IMG/VR virus record: IMGVR_UViG_2541047747_000003
Source of the DNA: a virus
Lineage: Duplodnaviria > Heunggongvirae > Uroviricota > Caudoviricetes
Length of the DNA stretch: 54,039 nt
Reading direction: 5' to 3' (one strand)
Shown: one piece after another, positions 8,942 through 20,005 of the stretch
Layout: each line of letters begins with the position of its first letter
Numbering within the stretch: the first letter of the stretch is position 1
Notes under the pieces: model-generated
Databases searched by the model: none
What the model was told of the DNA's origin: nothing
What the model saw: the letters and a program-made list of their open reading frames with translations, nothing else
Made by a program: the position numbers and the translations under genes

Positions 8942-9199
8942 TCATCCCTCCGGCAACATCACTACATAGACATCACTGAATGCATCAAGACGACAAACAA
9001 ATCCTTTATCCATTAACGCGGCGAAGGCATCATGTACCGTATGAACAGGAAGTTCACACATTGCGGCTACTTCTTTGCGTGATGCATCATGTACCCGTCC
9101 TTTGTTATCTGCCTTTTCAGCCAGAGCCATTAAGACAAGTTTTTGAATCGGGCTATTAAGTTTTACGTTCCATGCTTTACTAATCATGTTTATACTCAT
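8942..9199 (-). CDS. Putative HTH DNA-binding protein (Cro/CII-position regulator)
   Basis: First gene of the leftward operon, divergent from the repressor; start chosen at MSINMISK with an AGGAG RBS. Confidence 0.4.
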   Translation of the reverse strand: MSINMISKAWNVKLNSPIQKLVLMALAEKADNKGRVHDASRKEVAAMCELPVHTVHDAFAALMDKGFVCRLDAFSDVYVVMLPEG

Positions 9200-9504
9200 C
9201 GCATTTTCTCCTATGGTTAGAGTGAACGCGCGGGCGGGCATCCCATTAGCATTAGATAGCAGTGACTGACCGCTCAACAGATCCCGCCGTTGCGTGATAT
9301 TTGTTTTTCGCTTCGCAGCGACACCGGATTTTTAAAGAGCATAAGGTAAGTGCCTTTTTGTGCCTTCCGTTATCTTTTTCCTTGCGTCTTTGCAAGTATG
9401 GCCTTACCTTGTCTGCAAGTTTACAAAATGGAATTTTAAGATCAAGGCTTAAAATGCACGTTTTGTGACTTGCATCAAACTTTTTGAGGTTATAGGGTAG
9501 CGAC

Positions 9505-10152
9505 ATGAAAACAAAATGGTATGACTTAGCAAAGCAGCTCATGCGGGCGCAGGGCATGAGCCAGGATTCACTCGCGGATCGTATGGGGATAACTAAAGGC
9601 GGCCTGTCACACTGGCTGAACGGTCGCCGAGAGCCAAATCTTGAAGATATTGCGCGGATTATGCGCGAGCTTGGTCGTCGGCAGTTTACTGTTACACATG
9701 ATGGCATGGTCATTGATGATTCTGTTTCTAATACACTTCAGGCCGTGCCGCCGCGTGATTTAGGTAGTTACCCGGTTATTGACTGGAAGGACACAGTAAA
9801 CAATATGGATGACGCAAGGCGTTCAGCATTACGACACGTTACGACTAGCGTTATTTGTTCAGATGACAGTTACTGGCTGGTTGCCAAAGGTGAATCAATG
9901 AACGCGCCGCAGGGGTTGAGCATCCCGGCGGGGACGATGATACTTGTGGACCCGCACGCGCCAGCTATTGACGGCAAACTGGTTATAGCCCAGCTTGAGG
10001 AAGGGCAGATACCGACGTTTAAACAGTTGATTATTGATGGAGGTCAAAGGCTTTTACGTTCGCTCAATCCGCTGTATCCGCCAATCCCTATGAATCCAGA
10101 ATCAAAAATTATAGGCGTGGTGGTTGATGCGAAGATCGTAAACCTGCCATAA
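9505..10152 (+). CDS. CI-like repressor (HTH plus S24/LexA-type peptidase domain)
   Basis: 215 aa; N-terminal HTH (QDSLADRMGITKGGLSHWLNG), C-terminal S24-like domain with GESM serine motif and a downstream lysine. Confidence 0.85.
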   Translation: MKTKWYDLAKQLMRAQGMSQDSLADRMGITKGGLSHWLNGRREPNLEDIARIMRELGRRQFTVTHDGMVIDDSVSNTLQAVPPRDLGSYPVIDWKDTVNNMDDARRSALRHVTTSVICSDDSYWLVAKGESMNAPQGLSIPAGTMILVDPHAPAIDGKLVIAQLEEGQIPTFKQLIIDGGQRLLRSLNPLYPPIPMNPESKIIGVVVDAKIVNLP

Positions 10153-10275
10153 ACATTAGCCGCCGGATGGCGGCTTTTCTTTGCCTGGAAAACACCAAAA
10201 CGTAAACAGAAAACGTTATTTATTGTTTAAATATCAATAGCATATAAAATATTTTAAAAAAGTATACAAAATGGA

Positions 10276-10304
10276 TTGACTCGATGTTTTACGGGGCGTA
10301 TATT
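10276..10304 (+). promoter_or_regulatory. Sigma70 promoter (PL-like): -35 TTGACT, 17-bp spacer, -10 TATATT
   Basis: TTGACT at 10276-10281 and TATATT at 10299-10304; flanked by 8-bp inverted repeat TTGACTCG/CGAGTCAA (10276-10283, 10306-10313), a possible operator. Confidence 0.5.
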
Positions 10305-10558
10305 GCGAGTCAAAGGAAGGTCGCAGGTAACAAAAGCAACTTCCTGGCACTTTAAAAATCAGGCTTAACACCTTGTCAACCGTGGAGTAACTCCCCGATG
10401 GGGGACCGAAAGCGGCACTGATAACAAGGCGCATGGGGTGTTTAAAGCGTTACATCCCCCACGAAACCGCACGCAAGGCGACGAGTCAGCTTGCTTGGAG
10501 TGAGCAAGGTCACGCCGGGAACGGCGATGATTGCGGGATTAGTTGAAAGATGTTAAGC

Positions 10559-10596
10559 CGCTCATTAACAATCTGGTCAGCCGCTGGAAGTGCGGC
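10559..10596 (+). promoter_or_regulatory. nut-like antitermination site (boxA-like CGCTCATTA plus boxB-like hairpin)
   Basis: CGCTCATTA at 10559-10567 (one mismatch to boxA CGCTCTTTA); hairpin GCCGC-TGGAAGT-GCGGC at 10580-10596, in the leader between promoter and first gene. Confidence 0.4.
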
Positions 10597-10653
10597 AATT
10601 AACGAAGATGATTTTTTTATTAAGTATCATCAAGGATATACGGAGATCAGATT

Positions 10654-10944
10654 ATGAGCGTTACAATTATATATGGCAAATGTGATAGCAAAATGAATGC
10701 CAGGGAACGCAGAAGGATAAAAAGAGAAAACGAAAGAAAATCATCACCTGCAATCAATAAAACAGACAATGTGGATAAAGCTATTCGATTTGCAAACGAG
10801 GAAAGATGCAAACCAAATAGCATTAAAGAACGTCGCAAAGGATCAGTAAAATGGTATACGGAAAATGAAAGCGGCAGCTACTACCACGCAACGCAACCAC
10901 GCCATTTAGGGGAAAAACCCCTGGATAAAGTCCGCTACCATTAA
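10654..10944 (+). CDS. Putative N-like antiterminator (arginine-rich motif protein)
   Basis: 96 aa, first gene after the promoter; N-terminal arginine-rich segment NARERRRIKRENERK; RBS AAGGATATACGGAG. Confidence 0.4.
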   Translation: MSVTIIYGKCDSKMNARERRRIKRENERKSSPAINKTDNVDKAIRFANEERCKPNSIKERRKGSVKWYTENESGSYYHATQPRHLGEKPLDKVRYH

Positions 10945-10974
10945 TACAAAATGTAAACATTTGGAGGTGACATT

Positions 10975-11097
10975 ATGGTTATTCTGGCGCTTCAATTCAA
11001 ACTGGCGGTAGCGGAAATGCTTCATGATGCCGAAATGTGGAGCGCCGCGAATAAAGCCTTATACATAGTGTTAACAGCGAAGGAGATTAAAGGGTGA
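10975..11097 (+). CDS. Hypothetical small protein (40 aa)
   Basis: Hand-translated ORF with strong RBS GGAGGTGA; stop overlaps the erf start. Confidence 0.35.
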   Translation: MVILALQFKLAVAEMLHDAEMWSAANKALYIVLTAKEIKG

Positions 11098-11735
11098 AAA
11101 CAGAGTTACATAAAAAACTATGGACGATTCAGCAAACGCTGAATGCGCCGAAAAATCAGCGTAATAACTTCGGTGGCTATAATTACAGGTCTGCGGAGGA
11201 TATTTTAGAGGCGGTTAAACCACTGCTTCAAAATATCACACTGACTGTTAGTGATGAAATTGTCCTGATCGGCAATCGCTATTATGTGAAAGCAACGGCG
11301 ACGCTAAGCGACGGTGAAGATGTAATAGCGGTAACTGCTTATGCCAGGGAGGAAGAAAGCAAGAAGGGTATGGACGCCAGCCAGCTAACAGGAGCAACAT
11401 CAAGTTACGCGCGTAAATATGCTTTGAACGGTTTATTCTGCATAGATGATGCTCGCGATCCTGATACTGATGCTTACGCGAAGCAGACAGGCCTGCAGCA
11501 GCGACAACAGAAAAACCCACCAAAACAACAACCGCAGCAGAAGAAAGCGCCGCCAAATCCTGATGAAGTATTAGCACGTTTCTGTGATGCAGCAGCGAAA
11601 GCGCAGGACGCTAACAAGCTGCGTGAAATATTTGGCAAATGCTGGAAATTACTACCGGAAGGATCGGAACATCGAATCAAGGCAAAAGATGTTTATGACA
11701 TCCGGGTAGCAGAGCTTAACGGGGAGATGTGTTAA
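11094..11735 (+). CDS. erf: Erf-family single-strand annealing protein
   Basis: 213 aa with GTG start after an AGGAG RBS; N-terminal region resembles P22 Erf-type proteins; sits directly upstream of ssb. Confidence 0.7.
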   Translation: MKTELHKKLWTIQQTLNAPKNQRNNFGGYNYRSAEDILEAVKPLLQNITLTVSDEIVLIGNRYYVKATATLSDGEDVIAVTAYAREEESKKGMDASQLTGATSSYARKYALNGLFCIDDARDPDTDAYAKQTGLQQRQQKNPPKQQPQQKKAPPNPDEVLARFCDAAAKAQDANKLREIFGKCWKLLPEGSEHRIKAKDVYDIRVAELNGEMC

Positions 11736-12154
11736 TGAGTTTAAATTCAATCACGCTGGGCGGGAATATCGGTAATGATATGGAGGTTCGCTACACACAA
11801 AACGGGAAAGCGATTGGTAGTTTTCCGTTAGCTGTAACGAATGGCTACGGCGATAATAAGCGGGTAATGTGGATCACTTGCCTGGTATTTGGCGAGCGTG
11901 CGGAAAAATTGGCGCCACATATCCGTAAGGGTGGAAAAATAGTGGTAAGCGGTCGCCTGGATGTTCGGCAATATGACCGGAACGACGGCACGAAGGGGAC
12001 TGCGGTAGAAGTGGCGGTTAATGAATTTGAATTCATGAATGTTAACCAACAAGGCCAGCAGCAAGGACAGCAGCAGAAAGCGCCGCCGCAGCAGCAGAAT
12101 AATAACGGGAATAATCCGCCTCCGATGGACTTCGACGACGATATTCCTTTTTAG
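11735..12154 (+). CDS. ssb: Single-stranded DNA-binding protein
   Basis: OB-fold core, Gln/Gly-rich linker and acidic C-terminal tail ending DDDIPF. Confidence 0.85.
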   Translation: MSLNSITLGGNIGNDMEVRYTQNGKAIGSFPLAVTNGYGDNKRVMWITCLVFGERAEKLAPHIRKGGKIVVSGRLDVRQYDRNDGTKGTAVEVAVNEFEFMNVNQQGQQQGQQQKAPPQQQNNNGNNPPPMDFDDDIPF

Positions 12155-12170
12155 AATCAATGCGTTAGCT

Positions 12171-12449
12171 ATGAGTGATTATCTAAAACCGCCACCGCAA
12201 CCACGAACAAAAGAGCAAGTATTAAAAGAAGCCCGCGATCAAATCGATCGCGGGCTTTTTTTATGCGGCACGGCAGCGGATCGAATGGCGAAAAGATTTA
12301 GTGACCTGTACGCGAAGCAAATCTGGTTTGACAACTGGCGAGCGAGTTCTTACCCGCTACAGAAAACTGATGATATGCAGTGGCCTGAATATGTTGATCC
12401 ACGAATGCGCAAATATCGCGGGCGTATGGGCAAGGTTATTAACGATTAA
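12171..12449 (+). CDS. Hypothetical protein (start uncertain)
   Basis: ORF contains a strong intrinsic-terminator-like hairpin at 12229-12263, so the true start may be further downstream. Confidence 0.3.
   Translation: MSDYLKPPPQPRTKEQVLKEARDQIDRGLFLCGTAADRMAKRFSDLYAKQIWFDNWRASSYPLQKTDDMQWPEYVDPRMRKYRGRMGKVIND
12229..12263 (+). terminator. Rho-independent terminator-like hairpin (tL-like)
   Basis: Perfect 10-bp stem GCCCGCGATC / GATCGCGGGC with 5-nt loop, followed by seven T. Confidence 0.5.
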
Positions 12450-12461
12450 TGAGGTATTACC

Positions 12462-12713
12462 ATGACAGCTACAACATTAAGCGAAAATAACGGGCGCGGT
12501 TTTCAGGGGACTGCGGAAACCTCAGACGATGGTGATGTATTTGTCGAATTCGGTGGCGGTAACTATGAATTCGAAACGTCGGCGGGCTGGCACGATAAAT
12601 GGCCTTTCCCGACGCGCAAGGAATTAAGCGATCGAAAAACATTTGGCGAAGATGCCGAACGCCTGGCGAATAATAAATGGATGGATAAATTTATTGCGGA
12701 GGCTGAAAAATGA
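12462..12713 (+). CDS. Hypothetical protein
   Basis: 83-aa ORF with RBS GAGGTA. Confidence 0.5.
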   Translation: MTATTLSENNGRGFQGTAETSDDGDVFVEFGGGNYEFETSAGWHDKWPFPTRKELSDRKTFGEDAERLANNKWMDKFIAEAEK

Positions 12714-12823
12714 GTTTTGCAAAAATTGCAGCATTGGCTGCGGCGGTGGCGATCGCGGCGCTATATCTTAGCTTATCGCTTTATATTACGGTGGCGATCA
12801 TCAAGCTGATTACAACTATGTGA
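12710..12823 (+). CDS. Small hydrophobic peptide (37 aa)
   Basis: Hand-translated MSFAKIAALAAAVAIAALYLSLSLYITVAIIKLITTM; RBS GGAGG; start overlaps the upstream stop. Confidence 0.35.
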   Translation: MSFAKIAALAAAVAIAALYLSLSLYITVAIIKLITTM

Positions 12824-12830
12824 GGCAATC

Positions 12831-12953
12831 ATGAGAGTCAGTAAGGATATTGTGACGGTCGCGTTTTGCGTTATTTGTTTCCTGTTTGCGGTTGTGTTTT
12901 GTGGCGCACTTGCGGCAGTGATTAGCTTTATTGGTAAGGGGGTGATGTTATGA
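12831..12953 (+). CDS. Small hydrophobic peptide (40 aa)
   Basis: Hand-translated MRVSKDIVTVAFCVICFLFAVVFCGALAAVISFIGKGVML; coupled to the next gene. Confidence 0.35.
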   Translation: MRVSKDIVTVAFCVICFLFAVVFCGALAAVISFIGKGVML

Positions 12954-13222
12954 CTCTGTGGGATGCAAAAGAAGGTGATCTCGTTGTCTTGCCAGCATAT
13001 CGTAGTGATCTCGGGCTGGTCGTACTGAATAAAACATGTAGCGACATTCAACGCCCGATCCTGGTTAGATACTTAGACGGCACGATGATCGAACCGCGTT
13101 TCTTCGACAAAGTTGAACTGAAGGCCCGCAATGTTCGCGTTAAGCCTTTCCGGGCTTATGTTGAAAATCACTGGCGTAAATTGTTCGCCGGACTGAATGG
13201 GATGTTCGGCGTATGGCTATAA
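12950..13222 (+). CDS. Hypothetical protein
   Basis: 90-aa ORF in the coupled early array. Confidence 0.5.
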   Translation: MTLWDAKEGDLVVLPAYRSDLGLVVLNKTCSDIQRPILVRYLDGTMIEPRFFDKVELKARNVRVKPFRAYVENHWRKLFAGLNGMFGVWL

Positions 13223-16499: not shown

Positions 16500-16983
16500 C
16501 AGGTTATTAGCCTGCGTTTATGTCGCCGTTTTCGTTATCATCAATCTTATTGTTAACCACTGTGGCCCGTGGGTAATTCCGATCACCACGGTAGCCGCCG
16601 TGTGTGTCAATATGATGATTCGTGATTTTCTGTTATATGACGGCGGCCTTAAATGGTCGGCTACAACATGCGCCGCCGCTGGCGCAATCACGGTGCTGAT
16701 AAATTACGACGCCGGAATGGTGGCGATCGCGTCATTCGTCGCGGTTGTTTCCGGTGCGCTTATTTCTGGCGGCGTTTACCGGGTTTTACCTGGTGATTTC
16801 GATTCTAAACGCTGGCCTGCAAATATAGCGTCCGCCATTGGCGATGCGTTAATTTTCCCAACGCTATCGTTTATGGCATTCATGCCGGAAATATCAGCTA
16901 TGCAATTCATCTCAAAAATGGCGGCGGTAACGGTGATCACTATCATCATGCGCCGCTACTTTACGTTCGAGGGTAGGAAATGA
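16480..16983 (+). CDS. Integral membrane protein (possible VUT/YhhQ-like transporter, uncertain)
   Basis: 167 aa with four or five hydrophobic helices; weak resemblance to the DUF165 family. Confidence 0.5.
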   Translation: MKMVAIDRLLACVYVAVFVIINLIVNHCGPWVIPITTVAAVCVNMMIRDFLLYDGGLKWSATTCAAAGAITVLINYDAGMVAIASFVAVVSGALISGGVYRVLPGDFDSKRWPANIASAIGDALIFPTLSFMAFMPEISAMQFISKMAAVTVITIIMRRYFTFEGRK

Positions 16984-17744
16984 GTGGGCTTAGAAATTGG
17001 GTGGTGTGGTCGCTGTACGACGGCAGCGGATACGCCGTTAAAGATTGGGCCGACGCTGGTTATAAATGCTATTGCTTCAACTATGATGGCGCTAATCACG
17101 GCGATTATGAAGGCGTCAAAATCATTCATCCGAACATTGAGTATATCAACGTATGGATTGACAGCCATTTCCTGGTAATGTTCTCCCCTGAATTGTCTGT
17201 TTATCCAAATCCTGACATTATCCTGGGCTTTCCTCCGTGCGACGATCTTGCGGTGTCCGGCGCTCGCTGGTTTGCTGATAAGCGGAAAAAAGAACCTTAC
17301 TTCCAGCAGAAGGCGGCATACAACGCAAAACTGGTAGAAACGCTTGCTGATATGTACCACGTCCCGTGGATGGTGGAAAATCCGGTAGGTGCGCTGTCAA
17401 CGTTATGGCGCAAACCTGATTTTATCTTCAACCCGTGCGCTTACGGTGGCTACCTGCCTGAAGACGACAAACACCCTGCTTTCCCTGAATACATAGCTGC
17501 CCGCGACGCATACACGAAGAAAACTTGTATCTGGTGCGGGAATGGATTTAAGCAGCCGCTATTCCGGCCTGTACCTATGCCGGATGAATGGGAAGACAGC
17601 AAACAGCACGCGAAGTTAGGAGGAAAGTCGAAACGCACTAAGATGATCCGCTCACTAACGCCGCGCGGCTTTGCCCGTGCTGTATTCCTGGCTAACGACC
17701 GGGCCATCACTCGTACTACGCTTAACCGCATTTTACCGGACTAA
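16980..17744 (+). CDS. DNA cytosine-5 methyltransferase-like protein (divergent motifs)
   Basis: 254 aa; motif I-like LYDGSG, motif IV-like GFPPCDD (PCQ-like), motif VI-like VENPVG; no large target-recognition domain. Confidence 0.5.
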   Translation: MSGLRNWVVWSLYDGSGYAVKDWADAGYKCYCFNYDGANHGDYEGVKIIHPNIEYINVWIDSHFLVMFSPELSVYPNPDIILGFPPCDDLAVSGARWFADKRKKEPYFQQKAAYNAKLVETLADMYHVPWMVENPVGALSTLWRKPDFIFNPCAYGGYLPEDDKHPAFPEYIAARDAYTKKTCIWCGNGFKQPLFRPVPMPDEWEDSKQHAKLGGKSKRTKMIRSLTPRGFARAVFLANDRAITRTTLNRILPD

Positions 17745-17903
17745 AGTTTACAAAATGGCATCATTGCGTGATGCGGATCACATAATGGCGCTTTTTGCCT
17801 TGTTTGGGGGTATCCATTTTGTATACTTCAAGCAAACAAAATGCTCTTTAAAAATCCGGCAGCGCTGAAATGCGTAGAAATCACCTGAAAAGGAGAGAGC
17901 ATT

Positions 17904-19098: not shown

Positions 19099-19283
19099 CA
19101 ATGAAAAACGAAATTAAAGATCTGCAAATAGATATTCAGCGCGACGAGCATGATTTGGAAACTGTACGACAAATACAGGTTTTCCACATGCGAGAATTGC
19201 TTGCGCTTAAAGAGCTTGAAAGAAAGCTAGTGCAATCAATATCTGATCGCAAAAGACTGGTTGCACGTTACGGGGGTAAATAA
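19089..19283 (+). CDS. Hypothetical protein
   Basis: 64-aa ORF, coiled-coil-like, coupled to neighbours. Confidence 0.45.
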   Translation: MVVTMKNEIKDLQIDIQRDEHDLETVRQIQVFHMRELLALKELERKLVQSISDRKRLVARYGGK

Positions 19284-20005
19284 TGAATTTGGAATCTATT
19301 CTTAAATTCCACCTCCCAAAATCACCGCGTTTGTCAGATGAAAGCCGGGGCACGTCCCCAGACTCGCTTAATACTACTGATGCACTAACCGCAGCAGGTA
19401 TGGCGCAATCGCGCGTAGAGCTTGGTTATAGCGCTTTTTTAGGGAAGATGGAACTGTCGCAAGCCGAAAAACACAGGGCCGTAGTTTTGCTTACAGAGCG
19501 TTTAAGAGCTATGGCAAAAGATTACGAATACGTCATGGAGCTGGACGAGGACAAACGCAATGATCTTATTATTCTTGTTGCCGTTTTCGCGTTTCGGGAT
19601 TACTGCCAGAGTGCCGCGACAGAAAAAACTTGTATGGATTGCGGCGGATATAAATTTACGTTTGACGACTACGGAGAAAAACACCTTTGCAAAAAATGCA
19701 AGGGGCATGGAAAAGTTCGCAATCATTGTAAACAATGCAAGGGCCGTGGCGAAGTACCGGATAAAGCAGCCAGCGAAGCGGCGGAAATGCCAGTGTTCAA
19801 AACGTGCCAGCATTGCGGCGGGCGCGGGTACTCGCGTTTCCCTGTAGATCTTGTCCGGCAGGCGGTTAATCAGCTTGTTTTCCCGGTAAGCCGATCAACG
19901 TGGTGGAAGAAATACCGTGCTTTCTATGAAGACGCCATTACTGAATTGTTCAAAGAAGAGGCGCGGGCTGATAACGAAATTAAACTAGTGACACGGGGTG
20001 AATAA
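19283..20005 (+). CDS. Cysteine-rich zinc-finger protein with four CxxCxGxG repeats (possible Q-like late antiterminator)
   Basis: 240 aa; CMDCGGYK, CKKCKGHGK, CKQCKGRGE, CQHCGGRGY; sits after ninG-rusA, the usual Q position. Confidence 0.45.
   Translation: MNLESILKFHLPKSPRLSDESRGTSPDSLNTTDALTAAGMAQSRVELGYSAFLGKMELSQAEKHRAVVLLTERLRAMAKDYEYVMELDEDKRNDLIILVAVFAFRDYCQSAATEKTCMDCGGYKFTFDDYGEKHLCKKCKGHGKVRNHCKQCKGRGEVPDKAASEAAEMPVFKTCQHCGGRGYSRFPVDLVRQAVNQLVFPVSRSTWWKKYRAFYEDAITELFKEEARADNEIKLVTRGE

Follow-up and report, generated by a model that had tools for sequence, protein, structure and literature searches.

A probable Gp17/nut antitermination module in the rightward early region of an mEp021-type temperate coliphage

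We find that a 54,039-nucleotide viral DNA (IMG/VR record IMGVR_UViG_2541047747_000003; the whole stretch is called the window below) very probably carries the rightward early control module of a temperate coliphage of the mEp021 type (mEpimmI group), with Gp17/nut antitermination. A sequence-only reading of the region had proposed an N/nut antitermination system, and our analysis supports this proposal: the first gene of the early operon encodes a Gp17 ortholog with 93% amino-acid identity to the mEp021 protein, and boxA/boxB sites are present at the three places published for this system. It is not a new system, since Gp17/nut has been tested experimentally in mEp021, to whose Gp17 the window protein is this closely related, and it has been surveyed across 48 genomes. 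Here, we obtained the sequence elements, their conservation and covariation, and the orthology to Gp17. Gp17-dependent early antitermination at three nut sites and the Nus dependence of the phage group are reported for the ortholog in PMC11893012; the Gp17-RNA contacts and an identical behavior of the window phage and mEp021 are inferred.

Results

Region 9500-11100, which holds the repressor gene, the leader and gp17, shares 92-94% DNA identity with Escherichia phages mEp010, mEp515 and mEp021, and prophages matching it at up to 99.4% identity are present in 35 of the 5,426 complete E. coli genomes. Together with an annotated gene order shared with the mEp relatives, this identity assigns the window on sequence grounds to the mEpimmI group, described as Nus-dependent, non-lambdoid temperate coliphages (PMC11893012). 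Replication genes and an HTH gene run leftward at the left end of the locus (Table 1). The repressor gene is followed by a terminator, the promoter and leader, the 96-aa ORF, a 40-aa Kil-like ORF, and the genes for Erf, SSB and Abc2, and farther downstream by methyltransferase genes, Nin-like genes and a Q-like gene. The terminator behind the repressor gene, which is also annotated in the records of mEp021, mEp010 and relatives, insulates the gp17 promoter from repressor-gene transcription. For the boxB comparison below we used ∼50 related loci from IMG/VR, GenBank, E. coli genomes and Logan assemblies.

Table 1. Features of the early control region and associated sites, in window coordinates
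Feature	Position	Strand	Sequence or remark
nutL	9308-9341	-	boxA TGCTCTTTAAAAATCCGG and boxB UCGC-U-GCGA-A-GCGA; on the leftward HTH/replication transcript; 56.6 bits
CI-like repressor gene	9505-10152		HTH and peptidase S24 domains
Intrinsic terminator behind the repressor gene	10158-10183	+	stem AGCCGCC-GGAT-GGCGGCT, then a T-run
Invariant 15-mer	10260-10274	+	AAGTATACAAAATGG; abuts the -35; four perfect copies in the window
Sigma-70 early promoter	10276-10304	+	TTGACT, 17 nt, TATATT; 10/12 match; hexamers conserved
8-bp inverted repeat, left arm	10276-10283		TTGACTCG; overlaps the -35 hexamer
8-bp inverted repeat, right arm	10306-10313	+	CGAGTCAA; perfect (8/8) in the window
boxA-prime, fourth boxA-like element	10347-10360	+	GCACTTTAAAAATC; directly 5' of the structured block
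Optional structured block, predicted	10362-10559	+	∼197 nt, GC-rich; closed by a 9-bp helix, GGCUUAACA/UGUUAAGCC
nutR1 boxA	10559-10567	+	CGCTCATTA; conserved motif runs on to 10576
nutR1 boxB	10580-10596	+	GCCGC-UGGAAGU-GCGGC; folds as drawn; stem covaries
gp17 ortholog, 96-aa N-like antiterminator	10654-10944	+	93% identity to mEp021 Gp17; phrog_271
Strong intrinsic terminator hairpin	12229-12263	+	inside the abc2 coding sequence, downstream of nutR1
Methyltransferase ORF	16980-17744
nutR2	17842-17875	+	boxA TGCTCTTTAAAAATCCGG and boxB GCGC-UGAAAU-GCGU; 50.7 bits
Q-like gene	19283-20005		downstream of nutR2

The 96-aa ORF has an SD sequence, GGAG (10642-10645), 8 nt upstream of its ATG. Its product differs from mEp021 Gp17 (mEp021_17) by 7 amino-acid substitutions and is 100% identical to a MagusPhagus protein annotated “anti-termination protein N-like”; the phrog_271 profile bearing that same annotation matches residues 1-95 (E = 1.3e-13, 52.2 bits). 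The arginine-rich stretch already seen in the sequence-only reading, NARERRRIKRENERK, comprises residues 15-29 (encoded at 10696-10740), and its arginines (Arg-17, Arg-19, Arg-20, Arg-21, and Arg-24) are all kept and invariant in the comparison with mEp021 Gp17. Arginines 17, 19, 20 and 24 of Gp17 are reported to be fully conserved in 48 genomes, and Gp17 is described as the N-lambda-like protein behind early antitermination in mEp021, shown experimentally (PMC11893012; its section 3.5 takes the antitermination result from Valencia-Toxqui et al. 2023, Arch Virol 168:92).

The protein had also been called a divergent N. BLASTP of Gp17 against lambda N gives E = 11, hence no detectable pairwise similarity, and the Pfam N_peptide family (PF25694) aligns to residues 4-57 with 15.9 bits (E = 0.019), below its cut-off of 27.9. 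No relative was found in a PDB sequence search with Gp17 or in a Gp17-profile scan of 185,579 GTDB species representatives, and tblastn against 50,697 phage records returned matches only in the mEp group and in MagusPhagus. When 1.84 billion representative proteins were searched exhaustively with HMMER, the hits were the Gp17 family, one spurious repeat protein (P0032) and one distant homolog of 115 aa (P0033), which resembles Gp17 in its basic motif at the N terminus and its KWY...PLD..RY region at the C terminus. As to functional class, we find an N-terminal arginine-rich motif in the protein and, in the same genome, boxA/boxB sites with GNRA-like loops. The 96-aa protein thus belongs to the Gp17 family and very probably functions as an N protein does, with membership in the lambda N family not demonstrable by sequence.

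An 18-nt boxA pattern, YGCTCWTTAAHAATCYGG, occurs three times in the window versus 0.00 expected: on the minus strand at 9341-9324, 164 nt upstream of the repressor start; at 10559-10576 in the gp17 leader; and at 17842-17859, 98 nt downstream of the methyltransferase ORF. A short GC hairpin begins 3-4 nt past each copy. With a covariance model of the nut site, whose training alignment included all three window sites, these sites score 50-57 bits and the next match 12 bits. Gp17 is reported to act on nutL and nutR1, located upstream of the repressor gene and of gp17, respectively, and on nutR2, placed downstream of a cytosine-methyltransferase gene (PMC11893012), and boxA plus boxB sites are found exactly at these three places and nowhere else in the window. 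No nut sequences are given in the supplements of PMC11893012. The nutL and nutR2 sites are absent from the sequence-only reading. In mEp021 coordinates, the nutR1 counterpart maps to 12224-12261 and boxA-prime (see below) to about 12010. A nutR2 counterpart is present in mEp021 at 7,947 bp from nutR1, in agreement with the distance reportedly given in the abstract of the mEp021 study, where nutR2 is said to lie “more than 7.9 kbp” downstream of nutR1. Position, conservation and this reported distance suggest that the boxA at 10559-10567 and its hairpin are the published nutR1.

Both leader elements of nutR1 had been picked out beforehand, namely a boxA-like CGCTCATTA and a hairpin with a 5-bp stem, and both are confirmed here: RNA folding reproduces the hairpin as drawn, at -10.1 kcal/mol. 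The nutR1 boxB stem takes five forms in the relatives (GCCGC/GCGGC, GCUAC/GUAGC, UGCAC/GUGCA, GCAC/GUGC, and UCGC/GCGA), the last four belonging to GCUAC-UGAAAU-GUAGC, UGCAC-UGAAAU-GUGCA, GCAC-UGAAAA-GUGC, and UCGC-UGAAAU-GCGA. In an alignment of 13 sequences, base pairing at the inner three boxB pairs is kept in 97.4% of cells, with compensatory changes at two of these pairs. The nutR1 loops among relatives are UGAAAU, UGAAAA or UGGAAGU, and the nutL loops UGCGAA, UGCGAU, UGUGAA or UGCAAU, with cores (GCGA, GUGA, and GCAA) that are all GNRA. Overall, each loop core (GCGA, GAAA, GGAA(G), GUGA or GCAA) sits between a U and an A/U, and the boxB rule of the family is a short GC stem followed by U, a GNRA core, and A/U (U-GNRA-W, six bases).

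The 7-nt loop of the window nutR1, rightly described before as unusual, corresponds to this U-GNRA-W hexaloop plus one extra base; a putative drawing of it has a GGAA tetraloop with a closing U·G pair and a U bulge. It is specific to a subgroup with the Gp17 motif RERRRIKRENERK; relatives with the motif NAR(K/A)RRRMKRAAEQD have UGAAAU at nutR1. Among those relatives whose nutL was readable, nutL is identical, and the Gp17 N terminus and nutR1 vary together.

Could hairpin 10580-10596 instead restrict gp17 expression as an attenuator, as a terminator or as a site of RNase processing, and not be a boxB? Its stability, its GC content and its location in a 5' leader would be compatible with this, and the minimum-free-energy fold of the leader has the boxA/spacer paired to the region where gp17 translation starts, so that some translational control is plausible. 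However, the sequence 3' of the hairpin is GCAATTAACG, without a T-run (U-run in the RNA), so it is not an intrinsic terminator, and the simple terminator that the sequence-only reading had set against its own proposal is not what the sequence contains. In addition, the boxA-plus-hairpin unit recurs at two other operon starts, and the boxB hairpins combine covarying stems with loops of constant GNRA core, as is typical of a hairpin that serves for recognition. We consider this alternative extremely unlikely and retain the boxB assignment.

Downstream of nutR1, a strong terminator after ssb had been cited as fitting antitermination. This strong hairpin is confirmed (-33.6 kcal/mol, z = -7.4, with seven T in a row behind it), but it is located within the abc2 gene and not in a gap after ssb: it lies 75 nt after ssb, inside the abc2 anti-RecBCD ORF (12171-12449; phrog_656, E = 2e-29). 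An ARNold terminator is annotated at the matching hairpin inside the mEp010 and mEp044 homologs. It is plausible that this terminator is an antitermination target. A match to the Rfam family Thr_leader corresponds to the same terminator hairpin and to nothing else.

The early promoter (TTGACT at 10276-10281, TATATT at 10299-10304) is joint best by score among 7 sites found in 9000-13000. Promoter-like sites in this interval show no excess over shuffled sequence, and our call is based on intergenic position and on hexamer conservation, not on site frequency: both hexamers are invariant in 8 aligned relatives and are found in 52 of the 54 loci scanned. The earlier promoter assignment is upheld by these data.

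A flanking 8-bp inverted repeat, TTGACTCG/CGAGTCAA, had in turn been suggested as a repressor operator. The repeat exists, is perfect over 8 bp in the window, and brackets the core promoter. Across 54 related loci it matches at 8/8 positions in 32, at 7/8 in 13 and at 6/8 or fewer in 9, and the changes are non-compensatory. Six mEp phages tested are reported to share one immunity, with Rep021 excluding all six (PMC11893012), yet the copies in five of these same-immunity phages (mEp021, mEp010, mEp515, mEp044, and mEp554) retain just 6-7 of 8 matches. The left arm, moreover, is constrained regardless, since it is the -35. We therefore regard it as improbable that this repeat is the repressor operator of the early promoter. 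A better candidate for an operator or regulatory site is the 15-mer AAGTATACAAAATGG, which directly adjoins the -35 and has further copies at both of the remaining nut-associated promoter regions. Its perfect copies in the window lie at 10260, at 9417 in the nutL promoter region, and at 17744 and 17814 as an inverted pair just upstream of nutR2; its core, GTATACAAAATG, is identical in 54/54 related loci. The window contains 20 copies with up to 3 mismatches versus 4.6 expected, and the 15-mer may have a broader role, either in regulation or as a motif that accompanies promoters.

The window leader is ∼340 nt long, and relatives have leaders of two classes, long (∼348 nt from the -10 to the ATG) and short (∼135 nt). 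The classes differ by a replaced segment: short-leader phages have ∼42 unrelated nt and then TGCTCTTTAACAA at the nutR1 boxA position. In the window, a fourth boxA-like element, boxA-prime, precedes a structured block. boxA-prime has one mismatch to a 14-mer common to nutL and nutR2, is the fourth-best match of the nut covariance model (12.4 bits, boxA part only), and is kept in all long-leader relatives. The block is absent from about one-third of relatives, for example from the short-leader phages mEp013, mEp044 and mEp554.

The whole leader folds far better than shuffled sequences (z = -4.2). The helix predicted to close the block, GGCUUAACA/UGUUAAGCC, extends as far as the first nutR1 boxA base, and the block contains a covarying hairpin (10490-10508) and a GNRA hairpin (10513-10526). 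Among 16 distinct copies there are 25 variable columns: 14 fall at positions unpaired in the predicted structure, pairing is retained in 9, and in the other 2 a pair is lost in single sequences. In one lineage, hairpin 10490-10508 has changed from CUUGCU/AGCAAG to AUCACU/AGUGGU, corresponding to three compensatory pairs and one U-A to U·G change; covariation within the block is seen only in this helix and from this single lineage, and the remaining architecture is a thermodynamic prediction. The block has diverged less than the sequences on either side of it, and this holds also for prophages with a gp17 of just 71% identity.

GenBank annotates a 37-aa ORF (mEp021_16) in the block, where PGAP calls no gene. 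We rejected this ORF as the selected feature: the one diverged lineage alters 6 of 9 consecutive codons in a pattern that keeps the RNA hairpin exactly, which argues for selection on the RNA hairpin and against selection on the peptide. All copies checked have an intact ORF, and a leader peptide is possible. A retron msr/msd, suggested by the flanking inverted repeats, was rejected as well, with no reverse transcriptase being present nearby. Rfam 15 returned no match to the block at E ≤ 10 (two chance-level hits in 10300-10660 fall outside it), an Rfam scan of 9000-13000 gave no match for the leader block at E ≤ 1, and ARAGORN detected no tRNA or tmRNA. By phage blastn, a single 21-nt chance match was the only hit to the block outside the mEp phage group; in E. 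coli genomes it is matched only in 31 prophages. An exact 20-mer from the block occurs in IMG/VR only in contigs of the same phage group, and in GTDB genomes as a single chance match in a Rubrobacteraceae MAG. In all of these searches the block is thus confined to this phage group. In the published accounts we examined, we found no description of the boxA-prime and block module.

That boxA-prime and the closed, multi-branched 197-nt domain form a new phage leader RNA is a tentative idea, which we hold to be possible and on balance doubtful. The structured block stands to boxA-prime as, by location, a boxB does to a boxA. Two alternative partners are available to the 3' arm of the closing helix, namely its 5' arm and boxA residues 10565-10574, and the block could thus be a regulatory domain gating access to the nutR1 boxA. 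It could also be a stable non-coding RNA whose synthesis is shielded from Rho by a boxA-recruited Nus complex. Our preferred guess, which is speculation, is an accessory regulatory or non-coding RNA that is Rho-protected and whose fold may control access to the nutR1 boxA.

The leader polymorphism also bears on a rival explanation of the whole locus, according to which boxA assembles, independently of Gp17, an rrn-type NusB/E/A/G complex that does no more than suppress Rho along the long untranslated leader, with Gp17 being an unrelated small basic regulator. The TGCTCTTTAACAA of the short-leader relatives, the E. coli rrn boxA sequence, speaks for it, as do a boxA-prime that precedes an untranslated structured block and a Gp17 family that is a sequence orphan relative to the classical N proteins. 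Nevertheless, we judge this explanation very unlikely, given that a conserved, covarying GNRA hairpin stands behind every nut boxA, that the arginine-rich motif of Gp17 is invariant, and that Gp17 is reported as an antiterminator acting on these nut sites (PMC11893012). We thus keep to Gp17/nut antitermination.

Discussion

The elements in Table 1 suggest the following mechanism. Host sigma-70 RNA polymerase would start from the early promoter (10276-10304) and make an untranslated leader of ∼340 nt that ends in nutR1, with its boxA (10559-10567) and boxB (10580-10596). Translation of the first gene would yield Gp17, whose N-terminal arginine-rich motif may bind the GNRA-type boxB loop on the nascent RNA, while boxA recruits host NusB/NusE. 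The tethered complex, with NusA and NusG, would render the polymerase termination-resistant, so that transcription passes downstream terminators, 12229-12263 among them, and extends into kil-like, erf, ssb, abc2 and the genes that follow. Gp17 would have two more sites of action: nutL, which serves the leftward HTH/replication operon, and nutR2, which precedes the Nin-like genes and the Q-like late regulator.

The window adds one genome to a published and experimentally tested system and in itself matters little. The only possibly new material is the module of boxA-prime and structured block, and the U-GNRA-W boxB rule. Relatives in which nutL is constant while the Gp17 N terminus and nutR1 covary provide natural variants for the recognition of RNA by the arginine-rich motif, and the natural presence or absence of an extra boxA with ∼200 nt of RNA makes the function of the latter directly testable. 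The boxB rule and the leader polymorphism could serve research on processive antitermination.

Comparison with known systems places the window closest to mEp021 Gp17/nut, with which it has in common the orthologous protein and its arginine-rich motif, the three nut positions, the promoter, the gene order and the long leader. The difference in Gp17 is allelic (the 7 substitutions noted above), and we regard the two as the same system and not as variants. They also differ in the genes downstream of ssb, abc2 being located ∼540 bp farther on in mEp021.

With lambda N and its nutL/nutR sites, the window shares a small basic protein encoded by the first gene after a nut site, an N-terminal arginine-rich motif, a boxA accompanied by a boxB hairpin whose loop is GNRA-like, Nus dependence, and a Q-like late regulator downstream. 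The lambda boxB loop is a GAAAA/GAAGA pentaloop, whereas the loop here is U-GNRA-W, with 6 nt (7 at the window nutR1). Other differences are the number of nut sites (two in lambda versus three here), the lack of detectable sequence similarity between the proteins, an rrn-like boxA (TGCTCTTTAA...), and an N-like gene that is codirectional with the repressor gene, with a terminator between them.

A likeness to P22 gp24 (N) is a lead and no more than that. The gp24 N terminus (MTVITYGK...NAKTRR) resembles that of Gp17 (MSVTIIYGK...NARERR), with 10/20 identities and E = 0.017, and P22 boxB, GCGCUGACAAAGCGC, has a CGCUG...GCG framework in common with the window boxB. In contrast, the Pfam score of Gp17 is below the gathering cut-off, and the rest of the protein is unrelated. 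Finally, rrn boxA/Nus antitermination resembles the mEp arrangement in the TGCTCTTTAACAA of short-leader relatives, the rrn boxA, and in a boxA-prime directly ahead of a long structured untranslated RNA, much as boxA stands ahead of rRNA; it differs in that the functional boxA here is coupled to a boxB hairpin and to a phage protein with an arginine-rich motif.

The N-terminal part of Gp17 and the nutR1 boxB vary together

We compared Gp17, the N-like antiterminator, and its nut sites across six related loci, L051, L052-L054 (E. coli RM9245, E21845 and STEC308), L055 and L056, and the proteins P0020-P0029. The N-terminal third of Gp17 and the boxB of nutR1 vary jointly among these relatives, and we find four Gp17 motif types, each with its own boxB stem and loop. 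The constant parts are nutL and the C-terminal two thirds of the protein. P0020 looks like a recombinant whose N-terminus is of one type and whose C-terminus is of the other. The only distant Gp17 homolog found among 1.84 billion representatives, the metagenomic P0033 (115 aa), shares with Gp17 an N-terminal VIIYGN followed by a basic motif, as well as the C-terminal KWY...PLDRIRY, and has a longer middle region.

A structured module in the gp17 leader

Upstream of the nutR1 boxA we located a fourth boxA-like element, GCACTTTAAAAATC, followed directly by a structured, highly conserved block of 197 nt. A 9-bp helix closes the block and adjoins the nutR1 boxA, and one hairpin within the block carries three compensatory pairs. 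This module is present in long-leader relatives, whereas short-leader relatives carry ∼42 nt in its place. The block has no match in Rfam; GenBank annotates a 37-aa ORF over it and PGAP annotates nothing there.

The minimum-free-energy structure predicted for the leader pairs the boxA/spacer segment (GCUCAU...AAUCUGGUC) with GAUCAGAUUAUGAGC, which spans the last base of the Shine-Dalgarno sequence and the gp17 start codon. A 9-bp part of this pairing is kept in the main group and is weaker in diverged relatives; we detected no covariation within these 9 bp. The predicted pairing resembles the leader structure of lambda N, which controls N translation.

Features of the early region and repeats in the window
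Feature	Position	Remark
Perfect AAGTWTACAAAATGG copies	9417-9431, 10260-10274, 17744-17758 (+), 17814-17828 (-)	
Weaker AAGTWTACAAAATGG copies	e.g. 42880, 39870/39901	n = 16
Fourth boxA-like element and 197-nt block	10347-10559	upstream of nutR1 boxA
37-aa ORF (GenBank)	10433-10546	
Block hairpin	10490-10508	
boxA/spacer segment	10560-10578	
GAUCAGAUUAUGAGC	10645-10659	
Kil-like ORF	10975-11097	40 aa
Terminator hairpin	12229-12263	
abc2	12171-12449	

A 15-mer adjoins putative promoters

The 15-mer AAGTWTACAAAATGG is over-represented in the window (20 copies with up to 3 mismatches, 4.6 expected). Each of the three nut sites (nutL, nutR1 and nutR2) has a putative promoter upstream of it that is adjoined by perfect copies, and the reverse complement contains a -10-like TAWACT. 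AAGTWTACAAAATGG could be the repressor operator or another promoter-associated motif, and it raises the question of whether a separate promoter serves nutR2.

Genes downstream of gp17

A very strong, bidirectional intrinsic-terminator hairpin lies within the coding sequence of abc2, an anti-RecBCD gene, and 7 of the related loci that were retrieved carry an exact copy. The ORF directly 3' of gp17 has a weak likeness to lambda Kil (Pfam Lambda_Kil, E = 2.4e-4, under the cut-off; phrog_2055, E = 0.002). Between this ORF and erf, one relative, the E. coli E21845/O/A prophage (L053), has an inserted HNH endonuclease gene (2230-2697 of that locus), which the window lacks. Because the ORF after gp17 is weakly Kil-like, the gene order in the window reads N-kil-erf-ssb-abc2, reminiscent of the PL operons of lambda and P22.
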